A stretch of DNA of 32,000 nt from Coprobacillaceae bacterium. GTDB taxonomy: Bacteria; Bacillota_I; Bacilli_A; Erysipelotrichales; Coprobacillaceae. The notes beneath the pieces are model-generated. The model was not told where the DNA came from and did not search any database. It saw nothing but the letters and a program-made list of their open reading frames with translations. Below are positions 1-15,352 of the stretch, one piece after another. The DNA lies in assembly GCA_963675915.1 (NCBI GenBank), contig OY780959.1, positions 1,350,001-1,382,000 on the forward strand, in the 5' to 3' direction. How positions within the stretch are numbered: position 1 is the first letter of the stretch; every line of letters starts with the position of its first letter. Position numbers and translations under genes: made by a program.

Positions 1-1962
1 AAGATCATAAACATCATCATCCATCAAAGTAAATAATTCCATTCTCGTTGGAACCTTTCCTTCTAATTCATCTTTAACCCGGAAATATTCTTCATCAATT
101 AGATCCCTGACAACCCGTTTCCTTTTCGCCATAGATTCGAACATATCGATTAATCGCATATCAAAGTCAACTATGCAACCTACCGGAAACTCAAATGATT
201 GATAATCTCTTTTAATTAATATGTTTTTAGAATAAGATCTTCCACTTAGTAAAAAGGGCGCCTTTCCTGAATTTTCGTAATTTCCGATGAAATCTAATAC
301 ATTCAAGTATTTTTTATTTTCAAACAATCGGAGTCCCCTACCCAATTGCTGCATATATACAACCGGAGATTCTGTCGGTCTTAAGAACATAACCATATCA
401 ACGCCAGGCACGTCAACTCCTTCATTGAACATATCAACAGAGAAAACCACTTTAAGTTCTCCTGTTCTTAATAAAGATATTGCCTGGCTACGCTCTATTG
501 AGTTCTCACCACCGGAACCACTGTAAACCGCTGCCGCTGGCACATTTCTCTTGTTAAACTCTTTAGCCATTCTTTCAGCATGAACCCTACTGCTACAAAA
601 TCCCAAGGCGCATTTCGAATTGTATTTAGAATAATACTTGTATATCAGATCATAACGATTCTTTACAAGAAGTTTTTGATTAAGCTCTTTACCATTATAT
701 TTACCATTTGTTCGACTTATCTTAGAGTAATCTACAGTCTCATCGTAAATACCATAATAGTGAAATGGAACCAACATTCCTTTGTTGATCGCATCTACCA
801 AACTTATTTGATATGGAACTATATAGTCACAAAGCTTGTAGATATCCCTACCATCCATTCGATCTGGAGTCGCCGTAAGACCTAACATAAAACTAGGCTT
901 AAAATAATTCATGATTCTTACATACCCATCATTAATAGCATGATGGAATTCATCGATCACGATATAATCAAAATCATCTGGTTCAAAATAATTTTGGTTT
1001 AAATAATCACTTTTACCCAAACTTGCTACTGAGGCAAAAACAAGATCTGCTTTGGTATCTTTGTAGTCGGAATTGAAAAATCCCACATTAGAAGTCTTCC
1101 TAACCTTCATAAAACTATCGGCAGCTTGCTTAAGAATTTCTTCCCTGTGAGCCACAAATAGGACCCTTTTATATCTTATCGAGTCAAATGCCGCCAAATA
1201 AGTTTTACCGATTCCAGTGGCAGCGAAAACAAGACCTTTGTTTGCACCCTCTTCACGGATTTTATTTAATGAATACAAAGCTTCAATCTGAGCCCCGCGA
1301 GGAAATATAACCTCATGATTATTTTCATCCCTAACCAAATCATATTTTTGAAGTTGTCCGATTGCAGTCGGCTTTTTCCATTCTTTTGAATATTTATTCA
1401 ATTCTTCATCATCCATAATGATAGAATGGGACCTAAAAAGGTCTTCAAAAGTAATAAAAAACTGCTCATAATCTTTTGGATTCATCTGATTATCAAAACG
1501 ATAATTCCACTCAACCCCAGAAGTCAAAGCGCTCCTGGATATATTTGATGAACCAACATAAATCTCATCTTTATTTTCATAATGGAAAATGTAAGCTTTT
1601 GGATGAAATGACCTCTTTTCTTGATCAAACATTCTTAAATCAAGGGAATCTCCAAGCTCGCTTTTAAGCAAATACAAAGCACTTGGCTGCGTGATACCTA
1701 GATAGTTACCAGTAAGCAATCTAACCTTTACACCTCTATTAACAGCAGCATTCAAATCATCAATCAACATCCTAACCCCAGATTCCATAACAAAAGAAAC
1801 AATGATGTCAATATTGATAGCCTGATTAATACTATTTTTCAAGTAATTGTGTAATTGCTTGGTTGAATCATTGAAGCCGGTAATAACATTTGATATTTCA
1901 TCTTGAATATCAATAGTCTCTTTGCAACCAATTACTTCTTCCTTAAGATCATATTTATCCAT
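1..1962 (-). CDS. PLD-like (HKD) nuclease domain fused to an SF2 DExH helicase. The C-terminal part lies beyond the left window edge. It is absent from the supplied ORF track because it has no in-window stop.
   Basis: My own minus-strand translation from ATG 1962-1960 stays open to position 1 (654 codons, MDKYDLKEEVIGCKE...). A GGGAGGGG Shine-Dalgarno lies at 1979-1972, 9 nt upstream. Segments I checked codon by codon: HKD-type motif RSFHPKAYIFHYENKDEIYVGSSNISRSAL; helicase motif I LVFAATGIGKT; motif II VIDEFHH; motif III LGLTATP; motif VI QQLGRGLR. The start overlaps the stop of the upstream methyltransferase gene by 31 nt. Confidence 0.85.
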   Translation of the reverse strand, partial: MDKYDLKEEVIGCKETIDIQDEISNVITGFNDSTKQLHNYLKNSINQAINIDIIVSFVMESGVRMLIDDLNAAVNRGVKVRLLTGNYLGITQPSALYLLKSELGDSLDLRMFDQEKRSFHPKAYIFHYENKDEIYVGSSNISRSALTSGVEWNYRFDNQMNPKDYEQFFITFEDLFRSHSIIMDDEELNKYSKEWKKPTAIGQLQKYDLVRDENNHEVIFPRGAQIEALYSLNKIREEGANKGLVFAATGIGKTYLAAFDSIRYKRVLFVAHREEILKQAADSFMKVRKTSNVGFFNSDYKDTKADLVFASVASLGKSDYLNQNYFEPDDFDYIVIDEFHHAINDGYVRIMNYFKPSFMLGLTATPDRMDGRDIYKLCDYIVPYQISLVDAINKGMLVPFHYYGIYDETVDYSKISRTNGKYNGKELNQKLLVKNRYDLIYKYYSKYNSKCALGFCSSRVHAERMAKEFNKRNVPAAAVYSGSGGENSIERSQAISLLRTGELKVVFSVDMFNEGVDVPGVDMVMFLRPTESPVVYMQQLGRGLRLFENKKYLNVLDFIGNYENSGKAPFLLSGRSYSKNILIKRDYQSFEFPVGCIVDFDMRLIDMFESMAKRKRVVRDLIDEEYFRVKDELEGKVPTRMELFTLMDDDVYDL

Positions 1963-2546
1963 TTCTCATCGCCCCTCCCGACTCTGACATCGTCCGAGAT
2001 CCATTGTTCCAAAATATCAAAAACATCAGTTTCCGCGATTAGTTTTTGCATCTTATCTTCATCCAAATAAGTGAAGTAACGACCATCTATCATACCTTCA
2101 AAATCTCCGTATTTGAACGATGTATAAAGTACGCCACCTGGTTTCAGTGAATTAGCAATTTTGATAATTACATCTATAAGCTTATTGTAGGGAAGATGCA
2201 ATATTGATGCGCAGGCCCATACGCCATCATATGTATTTTCTACATTAAAATCATCAAAAAGTAAACACTTTGTTTTAATGCCGGTATAGGCAGTTGATAA
2301 TTTGCACATTTCTAGCGAACCATCAATAGCCTCAACAACAAAATCTTTGTCCAAGAAATATTTCGTATCCCGACCGCTACCACTTCCGAAATCAAGAATC
2401 ATACTACCAGTTTTCATGAACTTCAAAAATCTATTTTGATTATAATAAAATACAACCGAAGCGGTATTATCAAAATATATTTTTGCATTTTGGTTGTAAT
2501 AGTTTACCGTGCTGTCTTTCATATTATTTTGTTTTATACTCCTCAT
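1932..2546 (-). CDS. Class I SAM-dependent methyltransferase of the small-molecule/Methyltransf_11-like type. It has no DNA-MTase motifs.
   Basis: 204-aa ORF. Motif I ILDFGSGSGRD, an acidic post-I residue (VEAIDGS), and LKPGGVLY (post-II/III Rossmann element). It has no DPPY/NPPY motif and no PCQ/ENV motif. The start (2546 versus an internal ATG at 2522) is not resolved. Confidence 0.75.
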   Translation of the reverse strand: MRSIKQNNMKDSTVNYYNQNAKIYFDNTASVVFYYNQNRFLKFMKTGSMILDFGSGSGRDTKYFLDKDFVVEAIDGSLEMCKLSTAYTGIKTKCLLFDDFNVENTYDGVWACASILHLPYNKLIDVIIKIANSLKPGGVLYTSFKYGDFEGMIDGRYFTYLDEDKMQKLIAETDVFDILEQWISDDVRVGRGDEKWINMILRKK

Positions 2547-2634
2547 AGTTACAGTGAATATTTGAATGAAATTGATCTAACTACTATTTAACTTCGTCAG
2601 CGAGATAATTATTTTACTTTACTTCTAACCAACC

Positions 2635-3129
2635 TTAGGTTTTCAAGTTTCTATTTTTTATAGTCCTTATTAGTATATTCATTTCCTTATCAAAATCTCT
2701 TTTCAGTTCACACTCCCATAATGTTATAACTCGAAAACCCATCTCTTCCAGCAAGCTAATATTTATTAGATCTCTCTCAGTAGTAGTACGAATTTTTTTC
2801 TTCCAAAAGTCTACATTTGTTTTTGGATATTTAAAATGTTTACAATTTTTATGTCCGTGCCAAAAACATCCATTTATAAAAATCGCAATTTTGTATTTAG
2901 GCAAAACGATATCCGGGGAACCTGGATATCGCTTATCATTTTTCCTGAATCTATATCCTTCTTTAAAAAGATAACTTCGAACTCTAACTTCAAATTTAGT
3001 ATCTTTGCCTCGTATTTTTGACATAATGTCACTACGTTTCTCTTTCGAATAAATATCCGTCAAAATATCACCTACCAAAAAAGCATGACCATAGTCAGCA
3101 ACTACAAATAACATATCAATGAAATACAT
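2635..3129 (-). CDS. vsr: Very short patch repair (T:G mismatch) endonuclease
   Basis: KEKRSDIMSKIRGKDTKFEVRVRSYLFKEGYRFRKN...PGSPDIVLPKYKIAIFINGCFWHGH is the canonical Vsr core. The gene lies immediately downstream of the C5-MTase gene. The true start is uncertain; ATG 3129, ATG 3114 and a downstream TTG are all upstream of the conserved core. Confidence 0.9.
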   Translation of the reverse strand: MYFIDMLFVVADYGHAFLVGDILTDIYSKEKRSDIMSKIRGKDTKFEVRVRSYLFKEGYRFRKNDKRYPGSPDIVLPKYKIAIFINGCFWHGHKNCKHFKYPKTNVDFWKKKIRTTTERDLINISLLEEMGFRVITLWECELKRDFDKEMNILIRTIKNRNLKT

Positions 3130-3152
3130 ACTCGCCTACCATTAAAACATTT

Positions 3153-5381
3153 TCATTTAGGAGAAAACGAGAAATCCTCCACACAACGTGACAGCTGAAT
3201 TAGTATATCCATCAACACATCCACAACAATGCTATTACCTGCTTGTTTATATCCCTGTGCCCTTGAAACAACAATATCATAATCATCCGTGAAACCCATC
3301 AATCGATGCGCCTCACGCTCTGATAACATCCTTACTCTACCATCCACCGTAACATAATTGTCAACTCCCGCTCTATGTCGATTACCCATCGTTTTGAGTA
3401 AAGTGCGCGCTACAGGCAAATCTATTACCGGTTTAGTATAGAAGGTTTTCGTACCTCCACTCATAACGTACTTGTATAGTTTAGGGGTTAGAAAATACTT
3501 CTCCTCAATTTCACCTGGATTTCCGTCAACCAAAATTCCACCTGAATCGCTATGGGTAAAATCACCTTCCCGAACATTCTCGATTAAAAAATCCTGCATA
3601 GTAAAAGTCAACTCCTTTTTATCAGGCATGTTAAAATCGGTGACCCTATCAAGATCCTGCCTAATTCCAACGACAATTACTCTTCGTCTAGTTTGTGGAA
3701 CTCCATGATCTTTAGCATCTATTAATTCATACTTAAAATCATATCCAAGTTCTTCAAAAACAGACTTTATAACTCGCCAAGTATTTCCTTTATCGTGGGT
3801 CAGCATACCTCTAACATTTTCATAAATAAAAACTTTTGGTTTTATTTCTTTCACCAGTCTCGCAAACTCATAAAACAATGTACCACGTGTATCCTCAAGA
3901 CCACACTGTTGACCAACCGTTGAAAATGATTGACATGGGCTACCGCCCACAAAAATATCTACTTTTCCTTCAAAGTCGGTACCATCCAAAAGATTAATAT
4001 CCCTGAAATAAAAATCCTCATCAAGATCATAATTTGCCAAATAACTTTGCTTGACAAAGTTGGTTTTGGCCGTTTTATTTTTATACAGGTTATCAACATA
4101 TTTCTTTTTTTCCGTAGAACCATTTAAAGAAAATACAATTTCTTTTTGTTCATCAATATCGTATTCTATTTCGACTTCACCATTGTCACAAGCGAAGACA
4201 ATCTTATGATCAATTTTTAGTCTCTTCAAAGCGAATTCAAAAGCTCCAATACCACTAAATACCGTAGCTACACATAACCTATCATCAAACTCGACATCAG
4301 GATAGTATTCATAAATAGATGTAATTAATGATTCAAGTACATTAACTACTATGCTATTACCTATTTGCCGATATGCTGGCACATTTGGAACGACAACTTT
4401 GAATGAATCAGAAAAGCCCATTAGTCTCAGACATTCGCGATAGCTAAGCTGACGAATAACTCCTCTATATCCATTATATTCCCCAACATAAGCCCTATCC
4501 AAAATGTTATCATTATGCTTGCTAAAATCCAATTTTTCAAAAACGAAGTCTCCATTCCAATTGAATTGCTGATTGGCTTTTTGAGTTTTAATTATCTTAT
4601 TATTAATCCCAGCTCTATTTTTGTATTTAGGGTTTGTAACAAATTCGAATCCTTTTTTACCCAAATAATGATTTGTCGCCACATGTGGTTCCAAATAATC
4701 AAAGAGTGTAGTTTCCAATTTTTTAGGCTTTGGAAATGTAAATTCAACACTATTCCTAAACCCAACCACAAAAATACGTTTTCGGTCTTGAGGTATTCCG
4801 TAATCTTTTGAATTCATAATTTGATAATGAATTTTGTAATCTAGTGAATCAAAAATATTTCTTATTACTTCCCAAGTTTTTCCTTTATCATGGTGAACCA
4901 TACCAACAACGTTTTCATATATGAAAACCTTCGGCTCAATCTCTTTTACTAATCGCGCGTATTCATAAAATAGAGTGCCTCGAGCATCATCAAGGCCACC
5001 CCTTTTACCACTTATAGAAAATGATTGACAAGGGCTCCCTCCGACAAACAAATCAACTTTTCCTTTGTGTTTGGTACCATCAATAAACCTGATGTCTTCA
5101 TACCAACGATTCTCGTCAATATCATAATTTGAAAAATAGCTTTCTTTTACATAATTTTTCTTATTGGTAGAACGATATATTTGTTTAATAATTTCGTTAG
5201 CTTCCTCGTCACTTTTCCCTTTGACAACCTCAAAAATTTCATTTTTTGAGGTTTCCAATTCAATTTCACCATTATCGCAAGCAAAAACTATTTCATATTT
5301 TTTATTTAATTTTTCCAACGCTTGTTCAACGGCACCTATTCCACTAAACACAGTAGCTAACCTTAATTTCTTCAAAAACAT
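3153..5381 (-). CDS. Tandem-fused double DNA (cytosine-5) methyltransferase: two complete Dcm-type catalytic domains in one polypeptide
   Basis: The N-terminal half (about 4300-5381) has motif I ATVFSGIGAVE, IV GGSPCQSFSISG, VI ENVVGM, VIII QDRKRIFVVG and X GNSIVVNV. The C-terminal half (about 3153-4299) has ATVFSGIGAFE, GGSPCQSFSTVG, ENVRGM, QTRRRVIVVG and GNSIVVDV. The segments between motifs VIII and IX (the target-recognition domains) are unrelated between the halves. The start is ATG 5381, or GTG 5390 as in the track. Confidence 0.9.
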   Translation of the reverse strand: MFLKKLRLATVFSGIGAVEQALEKLNKKYEIVFACDNGEIELETSKNEIFEVVKGKSDEEANEIIKQIYRSTNKKNYVKESYFSNYDIDENRWYEDIRFIDGTKHKGKVDLFVGGSPCQSFSISGKRGGLDDARGTLFYEYARLVKEIEPKVFIYENVVGMVHHDKGKTWEVIRNIFDSLDYKIHYQIMNSKDYGIPQDRKRIFVVGFRNSVEFTFPKPKKLETTLFDYLEPHVATNHYLGKKGFEFVTNPKYKNRAGINNKIIKTQKANQQFNWNGDFVFEKLDFSKHNDNILDRAYVGEYNGYRGVIRQLSYRECLRLMGFSDSFKVVVPNVPAYRQIGNSIVVNVLESLITSIYEYYPDVEFDDRLCVATVFSGIGAFEFALKRLKIDHKIVFACDNGEVEIEYDIDEQKEIVFSLNGSTEKKKYVDNLYKNKTAKTNFVKQSYLANYDLDEDFYFRDINLLDGTDFEGKVDIFVGGSPCQSFSTVGQQCGLEDTRGTLFYEFARLVKEIKPKVFIYENVRGMLTHDKGNTWRVIKSVFEELGYDFKYELIDAKDHGVPQTRRRVIVVGIRQDLDRVTDFNMPDKKELTFTMQDFLIENVREGDFTHSDSGGILVDGNPGEIEEKYFLTPKLYKYVMSGGTKTFYTKPVIDLPVARTLLKTMGNRHRAGVDNYVTVDGRVRMLSEREAHRLMGFTDDYDIVVSRAQGYKQAGNSIVVDVLMDILIQLSRCVEDFSFSPK

Positions 5382-5433
5382 CACTCCCACTAAAATTTAA
5401 TTTTGATTAAACCAAAAATGAATATCCAAACCA

Positions 5434-5462
5434 ATTATACCAAATAGTAACCAGATTGTCTG
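5434..5462 (-). promoter_or_regulatory. Candidate internal sigma-A promoter with an extended -10, upstream of the methyltransferase gene
   Basis: Minus strand reads CAGACA (5462-5457), 17 nt, then TGgTATAAT (5442-5434). It lies in the 86-nt gap between the 176-aa ORF and the MTase gene. Confidence 0.45.
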
Positions 5463-5467
5463 TAGTA

Positions 5468-5998
5468 TTATAATTTAAGATTGAAACTATTATCAATAGT
5501 TTCTTTGAAATTATTTCTGGCATCCAAATAAATAACAACTACATTGTCCCCCAATTTTTTAAAAACAACATTACAGCAATCACCTATTAACAAATCATAA
5601 ATTAGTTTTGATGCCTCATTCTCCGTGTCCAGTTTAAAGTATTTTCTATTAGATAGAATCACTGGCTCAGGTACTTCTATATAACTGTAAAAAGTGTTTG
5701 AAGATCGAATATTATCAATGATCTCAACCTGGGGTTTTAATTTTTCTCTAAAAAGGGCTTCTCGTTCCTTAAGTATTACATATCCCGCTATTTTCTCTAT
5801 TGAGAGTAATGTCCTGGTAAAGTCAATATAATACTTATTGTTTCCTAAATTAAACCAATTAAGAACTTCTTTAGAAATGTCACTCATATAAAACGAGCCA
5901 ACGCTTCTTGGTTTGATGCCAATATGCTGTGCAACGATAGGTGACTCTGAATTTGGTGGGGAGACAATCAATTTATTATCAGTTATTGTTAACGACAT
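5468..5998 (-). CDS. Hypothetical protein (176 aa from ATG 5998) with no domain I can recognise
   Basis: ORF on the operon strand. ATG 5998-5996 is preceded by AGGAGA with a 5-nt spacer. It lies 1 nt after the AIPR stop (TAA t ATG), which implies translational coupling. The track's longer 187-aa version starts 32 nt inside the AIPR gene. I found no HTH, Walker, GHKL or clear PD-(D/E)XK motif. Confidence 0.65.
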   Translation of the reverse strand: MSLTITDNKLIVSPPNSESPIVAQHIGIKPRSVGSFYMSDISKEVLNWFNLGNNKYYIDFTRTLLSIEKIAGYVILKEREALFREKLKPQVEIIDNIRSSNTFYSYIEVPEPVILSNRKYFKLDTENEASKLIYDLLIGDCCNVVFKKLGDNVVVIYLDARNNFKETIDNSFNLKL

Positions 5999-5999
5999 A

Positions 6000-8090
6000 T
6001 TATCTCCTATCTTTGTCCGAATATCCTTCATTTTTTAATTTTTCTTCTATCGAACATATTTTTATACTTTGCTTTTCTGATGGGATTTTTTTTGTGAAAT
6101 CTAGAGCACTGAAAAGAAAACTAATATCAATTTCAGACAAAACCCCTAGTTTTTTCCCGTACTCAAGTCCATCTTTCCAATAATCGCTCCCCATATTTAT
6201 TACATGAGTTTGAGCTTCAATACCGGCTAACTGCTTTTGTTCCTTCTTTCCACTATCTTCACGGTTCTTTTCCTCATCTAGTGAAATCAAACTTTGTATA
6301 AATTCATCCGTAAATGTCCAATTTTCCTTAAGAGCTCTTTTCCAACAAATCTCTTTCTTACACCATTCAGTAACATTCAGAGTCAATCTATCGTCTCGTG
6401 TGATGAATTCAAAAACCTCATATGCCAATATTTTTATTTGCCGCCTAAGCGCCGGATACAAATCTTGTTTTTTCCAAACTCGTAAAAAATCGAACCCTAG
6501 CCCCTTATGTCCAAGTTTATCTACCTGATCGAATATTAGAGCCAGGGAATAAGTTACAATATTCATTCGGTATGCTTTGATAGACTTATACCAGTCTTCA
6601 CTAGATACAAGTTTTTCAGTTTCCTTGAACATTATTGCGATAGCAATTGATTTTTGAAAATAGTACTTATTGAATTCGTTGCTGTTTTTCTCCCACTGTT
6701 TCTCAATTATTTTTGCGAATTCCCGCATATTACGTTGATTACCTTTCGATACAATTTCCGGCTTACGTTCATAGGTCATTAAATATTTTGCGAGTTGTAC
6801 TTTATTAATAACTTGATTTTTTGGGTACCTTTTCTTGAATTTTGTGACCTGTGCCCTTGAAAGTTTCATTTGCTCTTGAGTATATTGCCCTTTTGCCCTT
6901 TCATAATACCATACAGTATCATATATTTCATTTTGTTTAGATGGAGCCAATATTTTTCTACTTAACTCTTCAAATCTTCTATGGAAAGGACTATTTGAGA
7001 AAAAGTCTGACTCCTCAACTTTATTTTGACTGTTCGCATATCTTGCGATATTTGGTATCATCTCGTTCGCCCTGTCACTTGACAATATTGACAGTTTTAT
7101 AGGCACTTGGACTCGCTCAACTACGAGCTTGTCTTTTATTACCGCATTCGCTATTGATGCTGTTGTTTGTCCTCCGTTTATAATTTGGAAATCCGTCAAT
7201 TTCGTTATAACTAAGCCATTTTCATTTTCTACCACTTCAATATCAGTAGCCGTAGCAGCTATACCATTATTGTAAGCAAAAAACAATTCCGGTTCATTTT
7301 TTATTGTGTTTCGTATCCCCTTGTTGATTTTCCCTCGTACACTCAAAAACGATCTAACATTCCCCTCCAAAAGTCTTGAACCATATTTAATGTAAAGCTT
7401 AGCAAGCAAATCACCATTAATGACTCCTAAATATGAGCTATACTCTTCTTCGGTGCTCTCAAGTGCTTTGACTGCATAGATTCCATCGTGACCGAATTCT
7501 GAAACATTAATTTCTAATTTTTCCCGTTCCCTAGTTGACATTATATTATTATAGTATTTTTCAATATCGTAAATTCTAACTTCAATATTTTTACCTTTGA
7601 ACTTACCAATATGATTAACATTTAGATCACGAGTAACTATCTTATCTGTCAACACATATATTATTATTTTATATGTGTTGTTAAACAACTCCTTTAAAAG
7701 TTGTGCCGCTTGATTCGCCTGTGAACTCTCATCACAATTTTCCGTAATATAATCGTCAATTGAAAACTCCAAATAATTTGTTACCCTTTTTACCGAGTTA
7801 CTTGCATCTGTAGTCGTCAATGATTCAATATTCGGAGCTCCGGAAAAATCGCAAACAAATAATCGCAAAGTATTATCCGATTCGTCAAGTGTTATTCCAT
7901 CGATTCGCCCACGTCTATTTCTTGGTCCGATAACTTCGACATCATATAAATCAACATCTAAAATTTCTTCGATATCAATAAGTAATTTAACATACATAGC
8001 CATAAATTCTGTCGTGTCATCCGAAATATTAATTAGTGAGTTATTTTCTATCTCATACAACATTTCTTTTCTAAATTCTTCAATTTCCAT
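6000..8090 (-). CDS. AIPR (abortive-infection phage-resistance) family protein
   Basis: 696 aa. It has the central FQIINGGQTTASI motif I associate with AIPR. Its size and position match the recurrent ATPase/Z1/PD-(D/E)XK/AIPR/Dcm/Vsr neighbourhood. A GAGGGG RBS precedes ATG 8090. Confidence 0.75.
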   Translation of the reverse strand: MEIEEFRKEMLYEIENNSLINISDDTTEFMAMYVKLLIDIEEILDVDLYDVEVIGPRNRRGRIDGITLDESDNTLRLFVCDFSGAPNIESLTTTDASNSVKRVTNYLEFSIDDYITENCDESSQANQAAQLLKELFNNTYKIIIYVLTDKIVTRDLNVNHIGKFKGKNIEVRIYDIEKYYNNIMSTREREKLEINVSEFGHDGIYAVKALESTEEEYSSYLGVINGDLLAKLYIKYGSRLLEGNVRSFLSVRGKINKGIRNTIKNEPELFFAYNNGIAATATDIEVVENENGLVITKLTDFQIINGGQTTASIANAVIKDKLVVERVQVPIKLSILSSDRANEMIPNIARYANSQNKVEESDFFSNSPFHRRFEELSRKILAPSKQNEIYDTVWYYERAKGQYTQEQMKLSRAQVTKFKKRYPKNQVINKVQLAKYLMTYERKPEIVSKGNQRNMREFAKIIEKQWEKNSNEFNKYYFQKSIAIAIMFKETEKLVSSEDWYKSIKAYRMNIVTYSLALIFDQVDKLGHKGLGFDFLRVWKKQDLYPALRRQIKILAYEVFEFITRDDRLTLNVTEWCKKEICWKRALKENWTFTDEFIQSLISLDEEKNREDSGKKEQKQLAGIEAQTHVINMGSDYWKDGLEYGKKLGVLSEIDISFLFSALDFTKKIPSEKQSIKICSIEEKLKNEGYSDKDRR

Positions 8091-8122
8091 GATAAACCCC
8101 TCGTCTCATTTTCATTTTTACG

Positions 8123-9070
8123 CTATATTTTTGTTACTATTTTTAGATCTCGCATATAATCATTTATTGTGCTAATTGCGATCTCATAAGAAACACCTTT
8201 AATACCTTTTGGAATACATTCTTTTGACAACTTAGGAAAAGATTTATTAACTATATAACTATTAATTTTTTTCACCAGGTAATTGTAGTCGTCATAATAA
8301 GGTATCCGCTTATATCCAATGTTTGCCAATTTGTCGTAGAACTTCTCAATTACTTCAATATCATCAAGCAAACTACTTATCTTTTCAACAATTATATTTA
8401 GGTTTACCCCATTATTATCTACAGGTGTTGTACGTTCAAGAGAAACTACAACCAAATTACCCTCGATTTCGCTATCCAGTTGTTCAATCGAAGAAATTTT
8501 AACTGAATCATTGCCCATAATTATCGACTTGACTTCAAACCATTCATTGTCAATTAGGAAGTCTTTTTTCATGAACTCACTGCCACCCCACGCATCAATA
8601 GATTCAAAATTAGAGTGTCTTTTAAGCATATGGTTTTTTAAAAATACCAATTCCGCTAATAAACCTTGAATCTCAATATTACTTAAATGCGCCTCGCTAA
8701 CTTGTTTAAAAAGAGTTTTCCACAATAGCCATCTCTTGTAAGAATTTCGTAAGAGATTTTTTTGTTTGATTTCGGTGAGGTACCCATATATATCATAAAT
8801 CAAATTTATGAAGACTTCTTCGAATTCAGGTTTCTTCAATTCAAATGTAAGTCTATTCTTTTTCGGATTTCCCACTTCAAATAAATCTATTTCAATGACA
8901 TCCGTACTTTTTACCTCAAAATTATCACAAGAACCATCTACAGCGAAAGACATATTCCCATGGTAGTAACCAACATAAATATCAGCTGACAACTCGCTAT
9001 CCAACAAAGTAAAATTATCGGATAGTTTGCATTTGTTTAATTTGTTTATTAAATCATTTTTACTCATCAT
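8123..9070 (-). CDS. PD-(D/E)XK-motif nuclease-fold protein (DUF4420-like)
   Basis: DFLIDNEWFEVKS gives a D...E-x-K signature in the C-terminal half. At about 315 aa it is the typical third gene of Z1/AIPR clusters. The likely start is ATGATGAGTAA (9070 or 9067), overlapping the Z1 stop at 9062-9060. The track's 9121 start lies 62 nt inside Z1. Confidence 0.7.
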   Translation of the reverse strand: MMSKNDLINKLNKCKLSDNFTLLDSELSADIYVGYYHGNMSFAVDGSCDNFEVKSTDVIEIDLFEVGNPKKNRLTFELKKPEFEEVFINLIYDIYGYLTEIKQKNLLRNSYKRWLLWKTLFKQVSEAHLSNIEIQGLLAELVFLKNHMLKRHSNFESIDAWGGSEFMKKDFLIDNEWFEVKSIIMGNDSVKISSIEQLDSEIEGNLVVVSLERTTPVDNNGVNLNIIVEKISSLLDDIEVIEKFYDKLANIGYKRIPYYDDYNYLVKKINSYIVNKSFPKLSKECIPKGIKGVSYEIAISTINDYMRDLKIVTKI

Positions 9071-11858
9071 AATAGTCGCCCTCGTCTTGCATACCCAATC
9101 TTGATAACGATTGTTCAACAATATTCATTTGGTACCTTATCAGTTTTGGCTTATTTCCTTTAAAGTTTGGGAAACCGATACTTATGGCAACTAGTGATGA
9201 TCTTAACGAATCATCAATTTTATCTAATATTTTTTTTGTTTCTTCGGTAGAATTTATCCCCTCAATAACGTTCGGTTGAATTATGTAAAGTGTGAGTAGT
9301 GGATTTCGATACTTGTCAAATATAAAGAAATCAGACTGTGATAAAGAACTAGAATCACTAATTTGTAGTTTTTCTTTTTTTACGTGTTCGACATTTGTGC
9401 AGCCAAATCTTCCATCCATTGGTCCTCCTAAACGTCTACGTTTACCAGAAATTCTTAGATAATTTGCACCAATTTTGGTATCAACTCGTCGTACTGTTTC
9501 TTTAACCAATATGTCATCTGTAAGTTGGATTTCTTCACCACTCCCAGATTGAATTGCTATGTCCCATTTTTGATATTCTTCGGTATCATTAATGTAATCT
9601 ATTATCGCACTTCTTTGATATTTTGTGTTTTCAATTGGAAACTCTAATGAATGCAATAAATCGATAACGTATCTATTGTCCACATTTTTAAATCCTATTG
9701 TATTGAATTCTTTTGTTAGATAGTACTCTTGTTTCAATTTTCCCAATCTTGATTTCACAATATTCAAGTTATCTCTATTAGTATTATTGTCCCCATAGAT
9801 AAATGGTGTTTCGATCAAACTTCCGTTCATATCCACCCACACATCTTGTGACTTTGCAGTTCTCATTTTATTTCTAGCAGTTACCAATATGCTAGAATCA
9901 TTTCTCACTCTTATTCCAAAATCTAATGGTGTTAAAGATGACTTCTTGTACTGTGATATGGAATTTTTTAAGTCACTAATTGAAACATTGATATTCATGA
10001 ATAACTCCTGTGTAACATCAAGCATCCATACTCTACAAAGTTTTTCGTAACCAGTCCTGTATCCGAACCAGCGGCCCATTTGCATAAGAGTATCATAAGC
10101 GCTAGAATTTCGATAAAAATAACTGACAATTAATCCTTCTAGCGTCAATCCTCTGGAAAGGGTTATCCCCCCAACTGCGATCACACGATAGCTAAGATTA
10201 TCTTCCTTAAATTGGTTATATTTCAAATCATCTTTAGACTTTTGGTTTTTTATGATTATTTCAATATTTACTGTTGATCTCCCAAGAACTTCTCTAATAT
10301 TCTTCCAAGTATAATTGCTATCCGTGCATATTTCTTCGTATTCTTTTACAAAAGTTTCTTGCAAATCTACCATCTCCGGATTGTTGTTTCTTACAGCCCC
10401 ATCGGGATGATTAGCACAAACCTTTATGGAATTTTTCAATTCCTTCACATACTCTTCTATTTGAAATGCAACTTTTTCTTGGATACTAACGAACCTTGAT
10501 ACATTAACCATCATGGATCTATGCGATTTAACATAACCATCTAGATCCCTTATAGCGTTTGCAATAAAAAAGGTTCTAATTGCATATTTCAATGATTCTG
10601 GCAATCTATCGAAATCAGCCTCTTTTTTGTGTATCAATGGTAGTATTCTATGAATTGAATTTTCCGGATTTAATTCACCAAGGTCAGTCTCTATTGTTTT
10701 AATACAATCCTTTAAGTCACCTTTGTTTTCCAAATCATACGGATCACCAAACAATCTACTCGAACTTACGTAATTAGATGGTGATTCCAGGCAATAGATA
10801 TAATCTTTTGGAAACAAAGAAGCATGTTCCATTTCCTCCTTGTTATCAGGAGCAATAAACACATTCGCAAATGGCGTAGCAGTAAATCCGACATAACTTG
10901 TTCTTTTAAATTTATCCAACAAAGATGATATCAATTTATTCGTTTTAGTAGGATCATCACCCTCTTTATTCGTGTTCAAAGAAGCATAATCCGCTTCATC
11001 ATCAATTATCAATATTGAATGATCTATCTTTCCTGATTCATCCGAAATATTTGCATTCGTAATCCATCCTAAAAGCTTATTCAAATAGTTAACATTTTTT
11101 TTCATGACAAATATTATTGGTGATTTAACCTGATCCAAAGATATTTTCAATGTTTGCGCATTGATACTATTGAAGTCATGCTTTGTGGTAGTTACAGAAA
11201 TTGGTCTTTTTTCGATGTTTGTCTCACAATATTTCGCAACACCTATTGACGAAGTCTTTTTCAATAGCGCCTCATCGCTAGAATAGCCTAAAAAACCGTC
11301 ATCAATTCTTAATTGAGTTTGTTTTCTTAGTTCGTTATCAGTACCTGCGAGGACAACAATAAGTTTGTAACCAGCATCAGCAGCCTTATTGATAATACCG
11401 ATAAAGTTTGCTGTTTTACCAGACTGAACATCGCCAATAACTAAGCCCACTCTACTGAAAAAACGTCCAGAATCCGGATCCCCTAATAAATCAGTAATAT
11501 CATCTGTAACTTCATCGATATTGTCCAAGATTCTTTGATTAAAATTTCCAGTTCCTTTTAAATATTTTTGATACCTATCCCAGTAATACATTTCGATTTC
11601 TGTGCGTCGAGATTTGAACCATGGTGCAAATTCACCACTTGTCAATATCTTATTAGGTTTTATAATTTGAAAGTTCAATCTTGCTTTAGCTTCTTTTTTT
11701 ATCCGCTCCAATATTTCATCAGAAACTGGAGCCTGATTGAAAAATCCCGTCAAAACACCATTGTATGCCGAAATTTTATCATCTATCATAATCTCATCCA
11801 AATCTTGAATATTAGAAACCATATTTATAAAACGATTCAAATGTTCTTCATAATTCAT
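9060..11858 (-). CDS. Z1-domain protein (SF2 helicase/ATPase-like)
   Basis: 932 aa. Walker A VIGDVQSGKTANF, Walker B/DEAD-like ILIIDDEADYAS, motif III-like GFTATPFAN. The length and gene neighbours are typical of Z1 proteins. It starts 6 nt after the stop of the ATPase gene. Confidence 0.8.
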   Translation of the reverse strand: MNYEEHLNRFINMVSNIQDLDEIMIDDKISAYNGVLTGFFNQAPVSDEILERIKKEAKARLNFQIIKPNKILTSGEFAPWFKSRRTEIEMYYWDRYQKYLKGTGNFNQRILDNIDEVTDDITDLLGDPDSGRFFSRVGLVIGDVQSGKTANFIGIINKAADAGYKLIVVLAGTDNELRKQTQLRIDDGFLGYSSDEALLKKTSSIGVAKYCETNIEKRPISVTTTKHDFNSINAQTLKISLDQVKSPIIFVMKKNVNYLNKLLGWITNANISDESGKIDHSILIIDDEADYASLNTNKEGDDPTKTNKLISSLLDKFKRTSYVGFTATPFANVFIAPDNKEEMEHASLFPKDYIYCLESPSNYVSSSRLFGDPYDLENKGDLKDCIKTIETDLGELNPENSIHRILPLIHKKEADFDRLPESLKYAIRTFFIANAIRDLDGYVKSHRSMMVNVSRFVSIQEKVAFQIEEYVKELKNSIKVCANHPDGAVRNNNPEMVDLQETFVKEYEEICTDSNYTWKNIREVLGRSTVNIEIIIKNQKSKDDLKYNQFKEDNLSYRVIAVGGITLSRGLTLEGLIVSYFYRNSSAYDTLMQMGRWFGYRTGYEKLCRVWMLDVTQELFMNINVSISDLKNSISQYKKSSLTPLDFGIRVRNDSSILVTARNKMRTAKSQDVWVDMNGSLIETPFIYGDNNTNRDNLNIVKSRLGKLKQEYYLTKEFNTIGFKNVDNRYVIDLLHSLEFPIENTKYQRSAIIDYINDTEEYQKWDIAIQSGSGEEIQLTDDILVKETVRRVDTKIGANYLRISGKRRRLGGPMDGRFGCTNVEHVKKEKLQISDSSSLSQSDFFIFDKYRNPLLTLYIIQPNVIEGINSTEETKKILDKIDDSLRSSLVAISIGFPNFKGNKPKLIRYQMNIVEQSLSRLGMQDEGDYYDE

Positions 11859-11864
11859 ATCAAA

Positions 11865-13316
11865 CTATTCTCTCATTCCTCTTAATTTTTGAATAAATTC
11901 TTCCCTTCCCGAATCAGTTAAAGTTGCAATATATGCATCTATAGCTTCATTTTTAGTCATGCCCCACAGCTCCATTAAAGTTGAAACCGCATCTTCTATC
12001 CTTGCATCTATTCTATTATCAGGGGTTGCTTTTTCGTTGAAATTATTACCTTTGGCAATATTTGAATAAATGGCATCATAAGGGATATCACTTTCAATAC
12101 CGCCTATTATTTTCTCAAAAGCTTTGTATTGATCTTTATCTAAAGATTCGACAAATTTCGTGATCATCGGTCTGTCTACGTCAATAAATAACTTGACGCC
12201 TTTGGATGTTTCTTGTAGATTCCAGGAGTTATCAAAACTTTTTTCGACTATTTTCCGCCCCTTGTACACATGTGTGTATTCGCTTGCTGAAACAGTATCT
12301 TCTACAGCTTTAATAAGCTTGTCCTTGATTATATCTGGTATTGTCGCCCGACTTTTCTTTATGTCTATGTCCCAAATATCATCCAAACTATTGGGAATAT
12401 CCACCATTACCCTTGCAAGCTTAAACAGTTCCTCTTTTGAATGTAGTCTAAACCATGTACCCCAAATAATCAGCCTTTTGTTTCTATAGATGTAGAAGCC
12501 CTGATTTTTTCGTAAATTCTCTTTCCCTCCAGCTGCAATTATTTCACTTTCCTTAAGTTTGCTGATTGACGGAAGTACATACTTGTTTACTGAAATCGGA
12601 ACATCATTAACGTAAATTTTTTGTTCTCTAAATATTTGTGTTGCAGGATTGTTTTTTATGAACGGGTCTAACGGTTTTACCCGATTTCCATTTACGAATA
12701 TCCTAAGATTCCTATCGAGCAACCTGTGATATATTAAGGCAATATGATCTTCGGCTTTGACCACTAACTCGTTGAAATTTCTATCAAATTTCAAACTAGA
12801 AAGTTTAATTCTATCAAAATTTTCCCAAAGTACTATTGTCCCTGATTGATGATTGTCAAGTATATCCAAATTAGGAATAAAATCCAATTCATCGCTAGTA
12901 TACTCGTTAATGCTCCAGTCATTTGTCAACAAAATGTTATCGATATCCCACTGGTATGTTGAAATAACGTTATTCTTCTTTGATACAACTGTAAACCTTC
13001 TACACTGAGACAGTGATGCTGACTTCATACCTAACCCGAATCTCCCAAGATCATCTTCAGATCTTTCCTCATTAGGGTTACGTGATCCATACCTCATGGC
13101 TAAAAATAGCTCATTATTATCCATACCTACTCCATTGTCAACAATTTGCAAATATTTTCGTTCCTTGTCTGCTCTGGAGATTATTTGAATATCATTTGCC
13201 TTTGCAGAAATTGAATTGTCAATTATATCCGCAAGAGCTGATTCAAAAGAATATCCTATCGATCTCATTGACTCAATAAGACTTGGAGCACAAGGAATAT
13301 TTATACGCTGTTTCAT
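11865..13316 (-). CDS. GHKL-superfamily (MutL/MORC-like, HATPase_c_3-type) ATPase
   Basis: Bergerat-fold motifs: N box LADIIDNSISA, G1 box IVDNGVGM, G2 box GRFGLGMKSAS. Start ATG 13316 (MKQRINIP) is preceded by an AGGGGGAA RBS. The track's GTG start at 13358 would overlap the predicted -10 element. Confidence 0.85.
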   Translation of the reverse strand: MKQRINIPCAPSLIESMRSIGYSFESALADIIDNSISAKANDIQIISRADKERKYLQIVDNGVGMDNNELFLAMRYGSRNPNEERSEDDLGRFGLGMKSASLSQCRRFTVVSKKNNVISTYQWDIDNILLTNDWSINEYTSDELDFIPNLDILDNHQSGTIVLWENFDRIKLSSLKFDRNFNELVVKAEDHIALIYHRLLDRNLRIFVNGNRVKPLDPFIKNNPATQIFREQKIYVNDVPISVNKYVLPSISKLKESEIIAAGGKENLRKNQGFYIYRNKRLIIWGTWFRLHSKEELFKLARVMVDIPNSLDDIWDIDIKKSRATIPDIIKDKLIKAVEDTVSASEYTHVYKGRKIVEKSFDNSWNLQETSKGVKLFIDVDRPMITKFVESLDKDQYKAFEKIIGGIESDIPYDAIYSNIAKGNNFNEKATPDNRIDARIEDAVSTLMELWGMTKNEAIDAYIATLTDSGREEFIQKLRGMRE

Positions 13317-13359
13317 GTGATTTCCCCCTAAAACCTTAAAATATCGTGTCATTAACACA

Positions 13360-13388: not shown

Positions 13389-13506
13389 CCCCTATTGTCA
13401 TTTATTTCATATTTGTGTAACAATTATTTCAAGAAAAGTATCATTATTTTTGCGCTATTTAATCGAGTAGGAGAAAATAAATGAATTTTATTTCCGACCT
13501 CTCACA

Positions 13507-13536
13507 CCACCGTACGTGCCGTTCGGCATACGGCGG
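13507..13536 (-). ncRNA. Group II intron domain V (catalytic hairpin), shortened 30-nt form with a CGC triad
   Basis: Minus strand: CCGCCGUAU-GCC-GAAC-GGC-AC-GUACGGUGG. This gives a 9-bp lower helix, a 2-nt AC bulge on the 3' side, a 3-bp upper helix and a GNRA-like tetraloop. The triad position reads CGC instead of AGC. Confidence 0.8.
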
Positions 13537-13543
13537 TTTAAAT

Positions 13544-14827
13544 CTATACTAAAATATGTTTTAACTGATATTGGTCTAGCAGTGATGCTAGACCATTTCT
13601 TTTGAGTACTTTGTTTGTTATTTTGGTTCGCAGAAACGTGCTTGCACAGCGGGCATATGATTTCCTGGAATTTGACCATGATTCATATTGCCATCTTTGG
13701 GCCCCTAGTTTTCTCAACTGTTTTCTACGGTTCTTGATGGTTTTCCATTTCTTCCACAGGTACATTCGGATTCTAAATCTAATCCAGCCATCCAGCCTTG
13801 CACATTTGGATTTGAAATTTCCGATTCGGTAGTAATTGATCCACCCGAAAATAAGTTGCCTTATTTTCATTCGGCGAAATTCCCATGATACTGACCAACT
13901 TCTATTAGTCAGTTCTCTGAGCTTATCTTTCAAGATAGCTATTGATTTAGCATGTGGTTTGGCTTTCCATGACTGGCTGAAGTCGTCATAGTAGAATCCA
14001 AATCCCAAGTATTTGATATCATTTGGTTTGGATACTTTGCTTTTGGTCATGTTGACTTTGAGCCCCAACTTCTTTTCAATGAATTTTCGCACATTCTCCA
14101 TAACTCTATCTGCCGCTTTACTGCTACCGACAAATATCATGCAGTCATCGGCGTATCTAGTAAAATGCAACCCTCTAACCTCCAATTCTTTGTCGAGTTC
14201 GTTAAGTACGATATTACTCAGCAATGGGCTTAACGGCCCTCCTTGGCTTGATCCGATTATTGACTCTTTGTATTCTCCATCAATGCTTATTCCACTTACC
14301 AGGAATTTTCTTATCAGTGATACAATTTCACCATTCTTGACATCTTTCATGATTAAGGTAATCAATTTATCGTGGTTGATGTTATCAAAGAATTTCTCCA
14401 AGTCAATGTCAACAATCCATTGGAAACCATCATTCATGTATTCCAATGATTTGATGATTGCCATCTCACAATTTCTATTAGGTCTAAAACCGTAGCTGTT
14501 ATCGCTGAACAAGGGTTCATAGATAGGAATCAATACCTGGGCGATGGCTTGTTGAACGAACCTGTCGAGCACTGTTGGCACTCCTAGGTTTCTAACTCCA
14601 CCATCTAGTTTAGGTATTTCCACTCTTAATACAGGCTGTGGTTTGTATTTCCTGTTTTGTATCATTTCCTTTATTTCATCAAGATGTTCATCGAGATGTC
14701 CTTTGAGGTCCAATACTTTCATTCCATCAACGCCACTAGCGCCTTTGTTTCGTTTTACTTGGGTATATGCCTTTTTGAGATTGATATCACTAAGCATTTC
14801 TTCAAGTAATGTGTTATCAGTATTCAT
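13544..14827 (-). CDS. Group II intron-encoded reverse transcriptase/maturase with no HNH endonuclease domain
   Basis: RNKGASGVDG (RT0/1), GVPTVLDRFVQQAI, SQGGPLSPLLSNIVL (RT4), RYADDCMIF (RT5 YADD), and a maturase X region WINYYRIGN. The C-terminus is basic and has no CxxC/HNH. The best start is ATG 14827 (MNTDNTLLEEML) with GGAGGT 9 nt upstream. The track's 14941 start is a TTG. Confidence 0.9.
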   Translation of the reverse strand: MNTDNTLLEEMLSDINLKKAYTQVKRNKGASGVDGMKVLDLKGHLDEHLDEIKEMIQNRKYKPQPVLRVEIPKLDGGVRNLGVPTVLDRFVQQAIAQVLIPIYEPLFSDNSYGFRPNRNCEMAIIKSLEYMNDGFQWIVDIDLEKFFDNINHDKLITLIMKDVKNGEIVSLIRKFLVSGISIDGEYKESIIGSSQGGPLSPLLSNIVLNELDKELEVRGLHFTRYADDCMIFVGSSKAADRVMENVRKFIEKKLGLKVNMTKSKVSKPNDIKYLGFGFYYDDFSQSWKAKPHAKSIAILKDKLRELTNRSWSVSWEFRRMKIRQLIFGWINYYRIGNFKSKCARLDGWIRFRIRMYLWKKWKTIKNRRKQLRKLGAQRWQYESWSNSRKSYARCASTFLRTKITNKVLKRNGLASLLDQYQLKHILV

Positions 14828-15352
14828 ATTTCCGTTACCTCCATTGATTTCGCTATTCATCAGGCTCACTTCCCCTACATTCTTCTTTCGGGCCTTGATA
14901 GTGTGTTCGTCTGTCTTTGAGGTTTCGCGTGATGAAATCAAGCCTAATTTTAATAACTGATAGATTCATTCAGTCCTTCACTCCATGGCCATTACAGCCA
15001 CTTCTTCGCTACTACGACGTCTGCTGACTTCTTGCGATTCGTTGTTACTAGGATTGCTCCCTCGCAAGATCTCCCGGGATAAGGTCATATCTCTTTCACC
15101 CCATATATCCGCCACATTTACATATAATAGTTGTGTTCCGCAACCTCTTATGACTTCGCGTTGTTTGGCACGCTCGTCCCCATTACATGCCTGATATGTG
15201 ATTCGTGTACCTCGGACCAGGGTTTTGCCTCCATCTTCCTTCAGATTCCACCTCACGATGGACACCCTTGATATTGGCTAGTGGTTGGCAGTTGCGACGT
15301 CACCCCCACAGTGGACTTTCACCACCTAGATATATGCCATGCCCGGCATACC

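Follow-up and report, generated by a model that had tools for sequence, protein, structure and literature searches.

A stretch of 32,000 nucleotides from a Coprobacillaceae bacterium (contig OY780959.1, positions 1,350,001 to 1,382,000; hereafter the window) carries a restriction-like island in which a small open reading frame (ORF) of 176 codons lies between the gene for an AIPR protein and that for a double C5-cytosine methyltransferase. Here we describe this ORF as a real, conserved and operonic gene, a member of a hitherto undescribed protein family whose domain is elsewhere fused to McrB-like GTPases, and which is inherited together with the same orthologous pair of methyltransferases (M1 and M2) in two different settings. 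From this combination we consider it probable, though well short of certain, that the 176-aa protein is a stand-alone DNA target-recognition subunit, or reader, of a restriction system. The gene and its immediate surroundings comprise the following features.

5468 to 5998, minus strand: the 176-aa ORF, with frame and start confirmed; member of an undescribed family and proposed to be a stand-alone subunit for DNA target recognition (reader).
6003 to 6008, minus strand: Shine-Dalgarno-like AGGAGA read from the sequence, within the 3' end of the AIPR gene and 4 nt ahead of the ORF's ATG.
5391 to 5467, minus strand: 77-nt spacer between the reader and methyltransferase genes, with two predicted sigma-70-like hexamer pairs in or near it.

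The sequence places the ATG at 5998–5996 and the stop codon TAA at 5470–5468, both on the minus strand. The AIPR gene ends with TAA at 6002–6000, and a single T separates this stop from the ATG, so that the junction reads AGGAGA-TAA-T-ATG and the gap is exactly 1 nt. An initial annotation of the window had described this anatomy accurately, down to the single nucleotide, leaving the strand unstated. The ATG at 5998 is the real start since all homologues begin there, with a conserved M-S/A-L/M at the N-terminus; the ORF listing also offered a 187-aa version from an ATG at 6031, which we discarded because the homologues start at the equivalent of the methionine at 5998. A match to MazE (E 0.084, 13 bits against a cut-off of 130 bits) is confined to this spurious N-terminal extension, outside the true 176-aa product, and was likewise set aside.

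An exhaustive HMMER search of 1.84 billion representative sequences recovered 56 cluster representatives of the family at E ≤0.001, with 30 reaching E ≤1e-10, and the designation 'orphan' that the ORF had been given thus no longer applies; a word-indexed protein search with the single query sequence had returned two proteins only, with a single relative, at 59% identity. Compared with this homologue, synonymous sites are saturated (pS 0.78) while dN is 0.30, which implies that the 176-aa gene is under strong purifying selection. Family members are mostly 170–190 aa long and match the profile end to end, and the window ORF itself matches the profile over its full length and displays both the PNSE…Q…R-x-V-G-x-Y-Y and the K-Y-L-K motif. 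The absence of any known motif noted at the outset was borne out: the ORF has no match in Pfam, NCBIfam, PADLOC or PHROGs, and represents a family absent from these four profile libraries. A Pfam scan of 33 family members at E ≤10 revealed no family common to them, PDB sequence searches with two family profiles gave noise only, and comparison of the N- and C-terminal halves of the family with hhalign was negative for an internal duplication. Searches of plasmids and phages with tblastn and a scan of viral contigs detected no homologues, and a scan of GTDB genomes for the family yielded one locus. One profile match, the repetitive 2763-aa protein P0044, was a false positive.

An indication of function comes from fused forms of the domain. 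Five longer proteins occur among the profile matches, and in four of these the family domain spans residues 1–165, with an AAA_5 module behind it. Against the family hidden Markov model (HMM), this N-terminal part of the McrB-like AAA_5 proteins P0038, P0051 and P0055 scores 75–103 bits, and the best PDB matches of P0051 are McrB GTPases. P0038 and the 72%-identical P0065 are encoded in operons of the order Dcm (361 aa)–Dcm (375 aa)–R1–RE_LlaJI, which is the architecture of LlaJI. In the LlaJI system, two 5-methylcytosine (m5C) methyltransferases protect an asymmetric site, R2 is the nuclease, and R1, which is devoid of a catalytic centre, is 'the sole specificity determining subunit'; one half of R1 is a McrB-like GTPase whereas its N-terminal half is 'entirely unique' and unlike McrB (PMC1459862). 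The N-terminal domains of the McrB family are DNA readers, with examples including DUF3578, YTH and the B3 domain of Helicobacter pylori LlaJI.R1 (PMC7680126). The family domain therefore occupies the position of the DNA-specificity domain in the LlaJI.R1 class of enzymes (PMC1459862, PMC7680126), and P0038 has no further module apart from the AAA+ GTPase motor, which would make the family domain the only candidate for DNA targeting in that protein. Close relatives of the P0038 GTPase module carry alternative N-terminal domains (MTaX1 PF20296, HTH_73 PF24718 and BpuJI_N PF11564), a variety such as one would expect of a target-recognition slot with exchangeable modules. Within this McrB-like clade of LlaJI.R1 relatives (P0073, P0087, P0152 and others) the N-terminal domains, which also include PF28530 and the present family, are extensively polymorphic at a motor identity of about 60%.

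The methyltransferases tell a parallel story. The N-terminal half of the window methyltransferase is 67–68% identical over its full length to M1 of the LlaJI-type loci L025 and L027, and its C-terminal half is 62–64% identical to their M2. Across the loci that resemble the window, M1 and M2 retain 48–80% identity, as against 26–39% for the reader and 22–35% for the effector proteins across most of the same loci, ranges that leave out the closest lineage (L001–L004; AIPR 75–80% and reader 59% identical). An orthologous M1/M2 pair and the reader domain are thus common to two different effector machines. The relationship does not extend to the canonical enzyme: hhalign found no similarity between the family and the N-terminal regions of pNP40 LlaJI.R1 and of an Acinetobacter R1, and the family HMM misses both, so that the N-terminal domain of canonical LlaJI.R1 constitutes a different sequence family. 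Similarly, the window methyltransferase halves are about 30% identical to the pNP40 LlaJI methyltransferases and not close to that M1/M2 pair, for which reason the GACGC specificity cannot be transferred to the window. In L025 (7920-9203) a 427-aa protein with a weak match to EVE, a modified-base reader, is encoded downstream of R2 and overlaps its end.

The genomic context was followed in relatives' contigs, covering members at 24–59% identity, which were mapped by tblastn with the window proteins. In about 18 lineages the family gene directly follows the AIPR gene at a gap of −1 to 14 nt, always preceded by a GGAGG-like Shine-Dalgarno motif in the same place as AGGAGA in the window, and no counter-example was encountered among the loci with enough flanking sequence. 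The translational coupling to AIPR that the initial annotation had suggested is consequently kept in every lineage examined, and where that annotation had counted a lack of homologues in conserved synteny against its proposals, many homologues in strictly conserved synteny were found. Two Dcm genes accompany the family gene wherever enough flanking sequence was recovered, and single-Dcm relatives do not have the sixth, post-AIPR gene. The Dcm pair is found either directly after the ORF, often with a 4-nt overlap, or upstream of the gene for the GHKL ATPase; in the four lineages with the latter arrangement (L005, L014, L020 and L021) the ORF nonetheless remains after AIPR. The earlier question of whether homologues accompany AIPR or the methyltransferase is thereby answered: they keep their physical place next to AIPR, whereas the Dcm pair goes with them by co-occurrence and, as these four lineages demonstrate, not by position.

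This invariable adjacency and coupling to AIPR would also suit an adaptor or assembly factor. Bound to AIPR, to the methyltransferases or to both, such a factor would link modification status to the effector complex without itself reading DNA, for instance as a tether for the complex or as a brake that keeps the nuclease inactive. The near-invariance of its motifs across homologues of 25% identity would fit a conserved protein interface, and the overall isoelectric point is neutral. We regard such a role as rather unlikely, in view of the fused forms. In R1 proteins of the P0038 type the family domain is combined with a GTPase motor alone, and R1 is the DNA-specificity subunit of LlaJI (PMC1459862); moreover, the fused forms sit in operons without AIPR, and an AIPR-specific adaptor role cannot therefore be the general function of the family.

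The same context bears on a DNA-binding controller resembling a C protein, which would time methyltransferase against effector expression upon entry of the island into a new host. The 176-aa protein is small and its gene adjoins that of the methyltransferase, transcription factors make use of B3/AbrB-like barrels (the structural matches described below include plant B3 domains), and in the window lineage promoter-like hexamers occur at 5496–5467 and 5462–5434, within and just past the 3' end of the ORF. These sigma-70-like matches are, however, not enriched over shuffled sequence (16 found against 17.7 expected), and the 'methyltransferase promoter' of the initial annotation cannot be established. 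In most relatives the reader and M1 genes overlap or abut, leaving no room for an operator or promoter, and in four lineages the methyltransferases are located at the other end of the operon. Neither a helix-turn-helix (HTH) nor any known controller or antitoxin family matches the 176-aa product, and a role as regulator or antitoxin would neither predict nor explain the fusion to a McrB-type motor. We accordingly consider a controller improbable.

The pattern of conservation within the protein fits the reader role. Sharply conserved positions are P15-N-S-E18, Q24, K29-x-R31-x-V33-G34-x-x-Y37, D59, K119-Y120-x-K122 and G139-D140. Conservation is highest across residues 14–38, an irregular segment of polar and basic character with a mean top-residue frequency of 0.67 compared to 0.24–0.51 elsewhere, and a second conserved spot is the K119/Y120/K122 loop; polar and basic loop residues thereby outrank those of the core. 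Provided that the specificity of the methyltransferases is retained, a reader matched to them should likewise preserve the residues with which it contacts DNA, and residues 14–38 together with K119/Y120/K122 fit this expectation.

A structural model could be obtained from the 33-member alignment, for which AlphaFold returned a predicted local distance difference test (pLDDT) value of 94.6 and a predicted template modelling score (pTM) of 0.90; the larger alignment was needed, since a two-sequence alignment gave an unusable model (pLDDT 36.5). Foldseek, which the initial annotation had recommended, produced no hit against the PDB at E ≤0.001 and nothing in the viral BFVD library, and what it did return on the side of DNA binding were weak but coherent B3-like matches. 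The sole full-length matches with an appreciable template modelling (TM) score are the C-terminal recognition domain of BfiI with DNA (3zi5_A; E 0.25, probability 0.51, TM 0.41/0.43, sub-threshold) and full-length BfiI. Further sub-threshold matches include other B3 domains, namely At1g16640, ARF2, TEM1 (TMt 0.47) and the N-terminal domain of H. pylori LlaJI.R1 (6c5d), and B3-like pseudobarrels (BfiI-C, EcoRII-N, plant B3) as a class thus provide the best, albeit sub-threshold, full-length structural likeness of the model. The model deviates from B3 cores by a helical insert of about 40 residues (residues 60–100) that these do not have. A B3-like DNA-binding pseudobarrel with a helical insert is consequently a tentative proposal drawn from a predicted model, somewhat less likely than the alternative that the fold is of another class, and should be taken as a lead and not as a result; if it holds, the two conserved loop 'arms' could match the N- and C-arms of B3 domains.

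Among the best Foldseek E-values are nuclease-type proteins (Dxo1, Rai1 and Can2), which together with the conservation of D140 and K148 and the neighbouring methyltransferase gene might be read in favour of the small type-II-like endonuclease, cognate to the methyltransferase, that had been among the first proposals. The TM scores of 0.13–0.15 and root-mean-square deviations above 14 Å signify that these are not fold matches, and the alignment has no conserved D…(D/E)xK spacing such as would, together with an αβββαβ core, mark a type II endonuclease of the PD-(D/E)XK kind, nor does the ORF match such a family in Pfam. The operon already contains a PD-(D/E)XK protein of the DUF4420 family, just as LlaJI-type loci possess R2 (PF09563), and R1.LlaJI has no catalytic centre of its own (PMC1459862). 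A nuclease role is thus highly improbable. Of the three roles originally envisaged, then, the specificity or adaptor subunit gains support from the homology to R1 N-terminal domains and the orthologous Dcm pair, while the endonuclease and the regulator or antitoxin do not.

Several observations weigh against a DNA reader and have to be set beside those above. The median isoelectric point of the family is about 6.6, i.e. the proteins are not basic; instead of DNA, the near-invariant motifs in the loops could contact a small ligand or a protein partner that is itself conserved; and no sequence-profile link connects the family to the B3, EcoRII-N or LlaJI.R1-N families or to solved B3 structures.

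Taking the target-recognition subunit as the preferred reading, a working scheme can be outlined. The M1 and M2 activities, fused in the window, would between them methylate both strands of a host site that is probably asymmetric, and Vsr would repair the T:G deamination mismatches that arise from this methylation. The 176-aa protein would bind the same site when it is unmethylated, using the irregular segment of residues 14–38 (PNSE..Q-H/R..K-x-R-x-V-G-x-Y-Y) and the K119-Y120-x-K122 loop, and would presumably contact AIPR.

The remaining genes of the island are all encoded on the minus strand and follow the operon-like order GHKL, DUF4420, AIPR, 176-aa ORF, double Dcm and Vsr; they are listed here with the features that flank them.

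13462 to 15262, minus strand: complete group II intron directly upstream of the GHKL start, with Rfam matches to D1-D4 and the domain V/VI region.
11865 to 13358, minus strand: GHKL (paraMORC/MutL-like) ATPase, MzaB-like (Pfam HATPase_c_3 8e-37; PADLOC MzaB 1e-75).
9060 to 11858, minus strand: further island gene, between the GHKL and DUF4420 genes.
8123 to 9121, minus strand: DUF4420 PD-(D/E)XK protein, MzaD-like, a predicted nuclease (Pfam DUF4420 9e-50; PADLOC MzaD).
6000 to 8090, minus strand: AIPR protein of 696 aa, MzaE-like (Pfam AIPR 3e-92 and AIPR_N; PADLOC MzaE 7.5e-75; NCBIfam MzaE 334 bits).
3153 to 5390, minus strand: fused double C5-cytosine methyltransferase M1–M2 of 745 aa, with two PF00145 stretches.
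2635 to 3129, minus strand: Vsr very-short-patch repair endonuclease (Pfam Vsr 3e-33; NCBIfam vsr).
1932 to 2546, minus strand: class I S-adenosylmethionine-dependent methyltransferase of 204 aa, just downstream of Vsr (Methyltransf_25/12/11; weak PADLOC mad2 match).

M1 and M2 are fused in the window, whereas all related loci examined, even the closest (69–80% identity), encode them in two genes, which often overlap; the fusion could be genuine or could reflect an indel that merges the two frames. The start of the methyltransferase gene (5381-5390, minus strand) is uncertain by three codons, as the ORF is listed from a GTG at 5390 while an ATG at 5381 (MFLKKLRLATVFSG…) gives the better alignment to the beginning of the L002 homologue (MLLGTLRLATVFSG…). 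A small methyltransferase like that at 1932-2546 is found in L006 several kb away and on the opposite strand. The group II intron, whose reverse transcriptase/maturase ORF spans 13544–14941, marks the boundary between the defence island, at about 31–35% G+C, and a flank of about 40% G+C.

Other loci provide further detail on the position after AIPR. The sub-lineage whose Dcm pair precedes GHKL has an extra gene of 247 aa that overlaps the 3' end of the reader gene by 13 nt (L005 10537-11280; L021 8684-9427); its products are 67% identical between the two loci and have no Pfam match, and they may represent a seventh component. In the canonical Mza locus with a sigma factor on Thalassospira marina pCSC3H3 (L029), an enzyme with AspBHI_N and Mrr_cat domains is encoded at 10603-11772, 10 nt after mzaE, and is followed by Dcm. 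This enzyme is of the modification-dependent restriction endonuclease type and unrelated to the family, and the slot after AIPR may generally be where accessory modules for DNA recognition or with nuclease function dock.

The significance of these findings lies in the fact that a small subunit which shares homology with the targeting head found in some LlaJI-type enzymes, and which is inherited with the same methyltransferase pair, makes specificity testable, the candidate specificity subunit being a single protein of 20 kDa. A domain family missing from the profile libraries is now defined, along with a variant of six genes whose annotation by current defence-system finders would be incomplete. 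The family illustrates a methyltransferase-plus-reader unit exchanged between unrelated restriction machines, and it offers a concrete entry point to how Mza-like systems find their targets and to what AIPR does.

Compared with known systems, the window locus resembles in its gene content the anti-phage system Mza (MzaABCDE). It possesses MzaB-, MzaC-, MzaD- and MzaE-like genes in the canonical order, with PADLOC matches at 1e-16 to 1e-119 and Pfam domains in agreement, and its association with Dcm and Vsr fits the description by Iyer et al. 2008 (PMC2292703). The scores of MzaB to MzaE are nevertheless all below the NCBIfam equivalog cut-offs (312/850, 480/1500, 78/420 and 334/1050 bits), and the PADLOC model of the sigma-factor-like MzaA found no match among the eight island proteins scanned (1932–13358). 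By these sequence comparisons, and because the scores fall so far short and MzaA is missing, the locus is classified as Mza-like and not as an equivalog of the validated Mza. Upstream of GHKL the window has the group II intron where the Thalassospira Mza has a sigma-70 family gene, the 176-aa ORF is not one of the five named components, matching none of them in PADLOC or NCBIfam, and the variant adds this sixth gene after AIPR as well as two Dcm activities. CglI differs in having its reader fused to a PLD nuclease, whereas in the window the reader stands alone, the candidate nuclease is the DUF4420 PD-(D/E)XK protein, and GHKL and AIPR are added. In relation to LlaJI, the eight island proteins scanned include neither the AAA_5/McrB domain of R1 nor the RE_LlaJI domain (PF09563) of R2 that is present in L025 and L027; lacking both a McrB-like R1 and R2, the window does not encode a LlaJI system, and its family domain is free-standing. 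It does share with LlaJI the possession of two m5C methyltransferases, here as two PF00145 modules in one protein that are orthologous to M1 and M2 of L025 and L027, and a subset of R1 proteins, encoded in Dcm–Dcm–R1–RE_LlaJI operons, have the homologue of the 176-aa protein as their first 165 residues.
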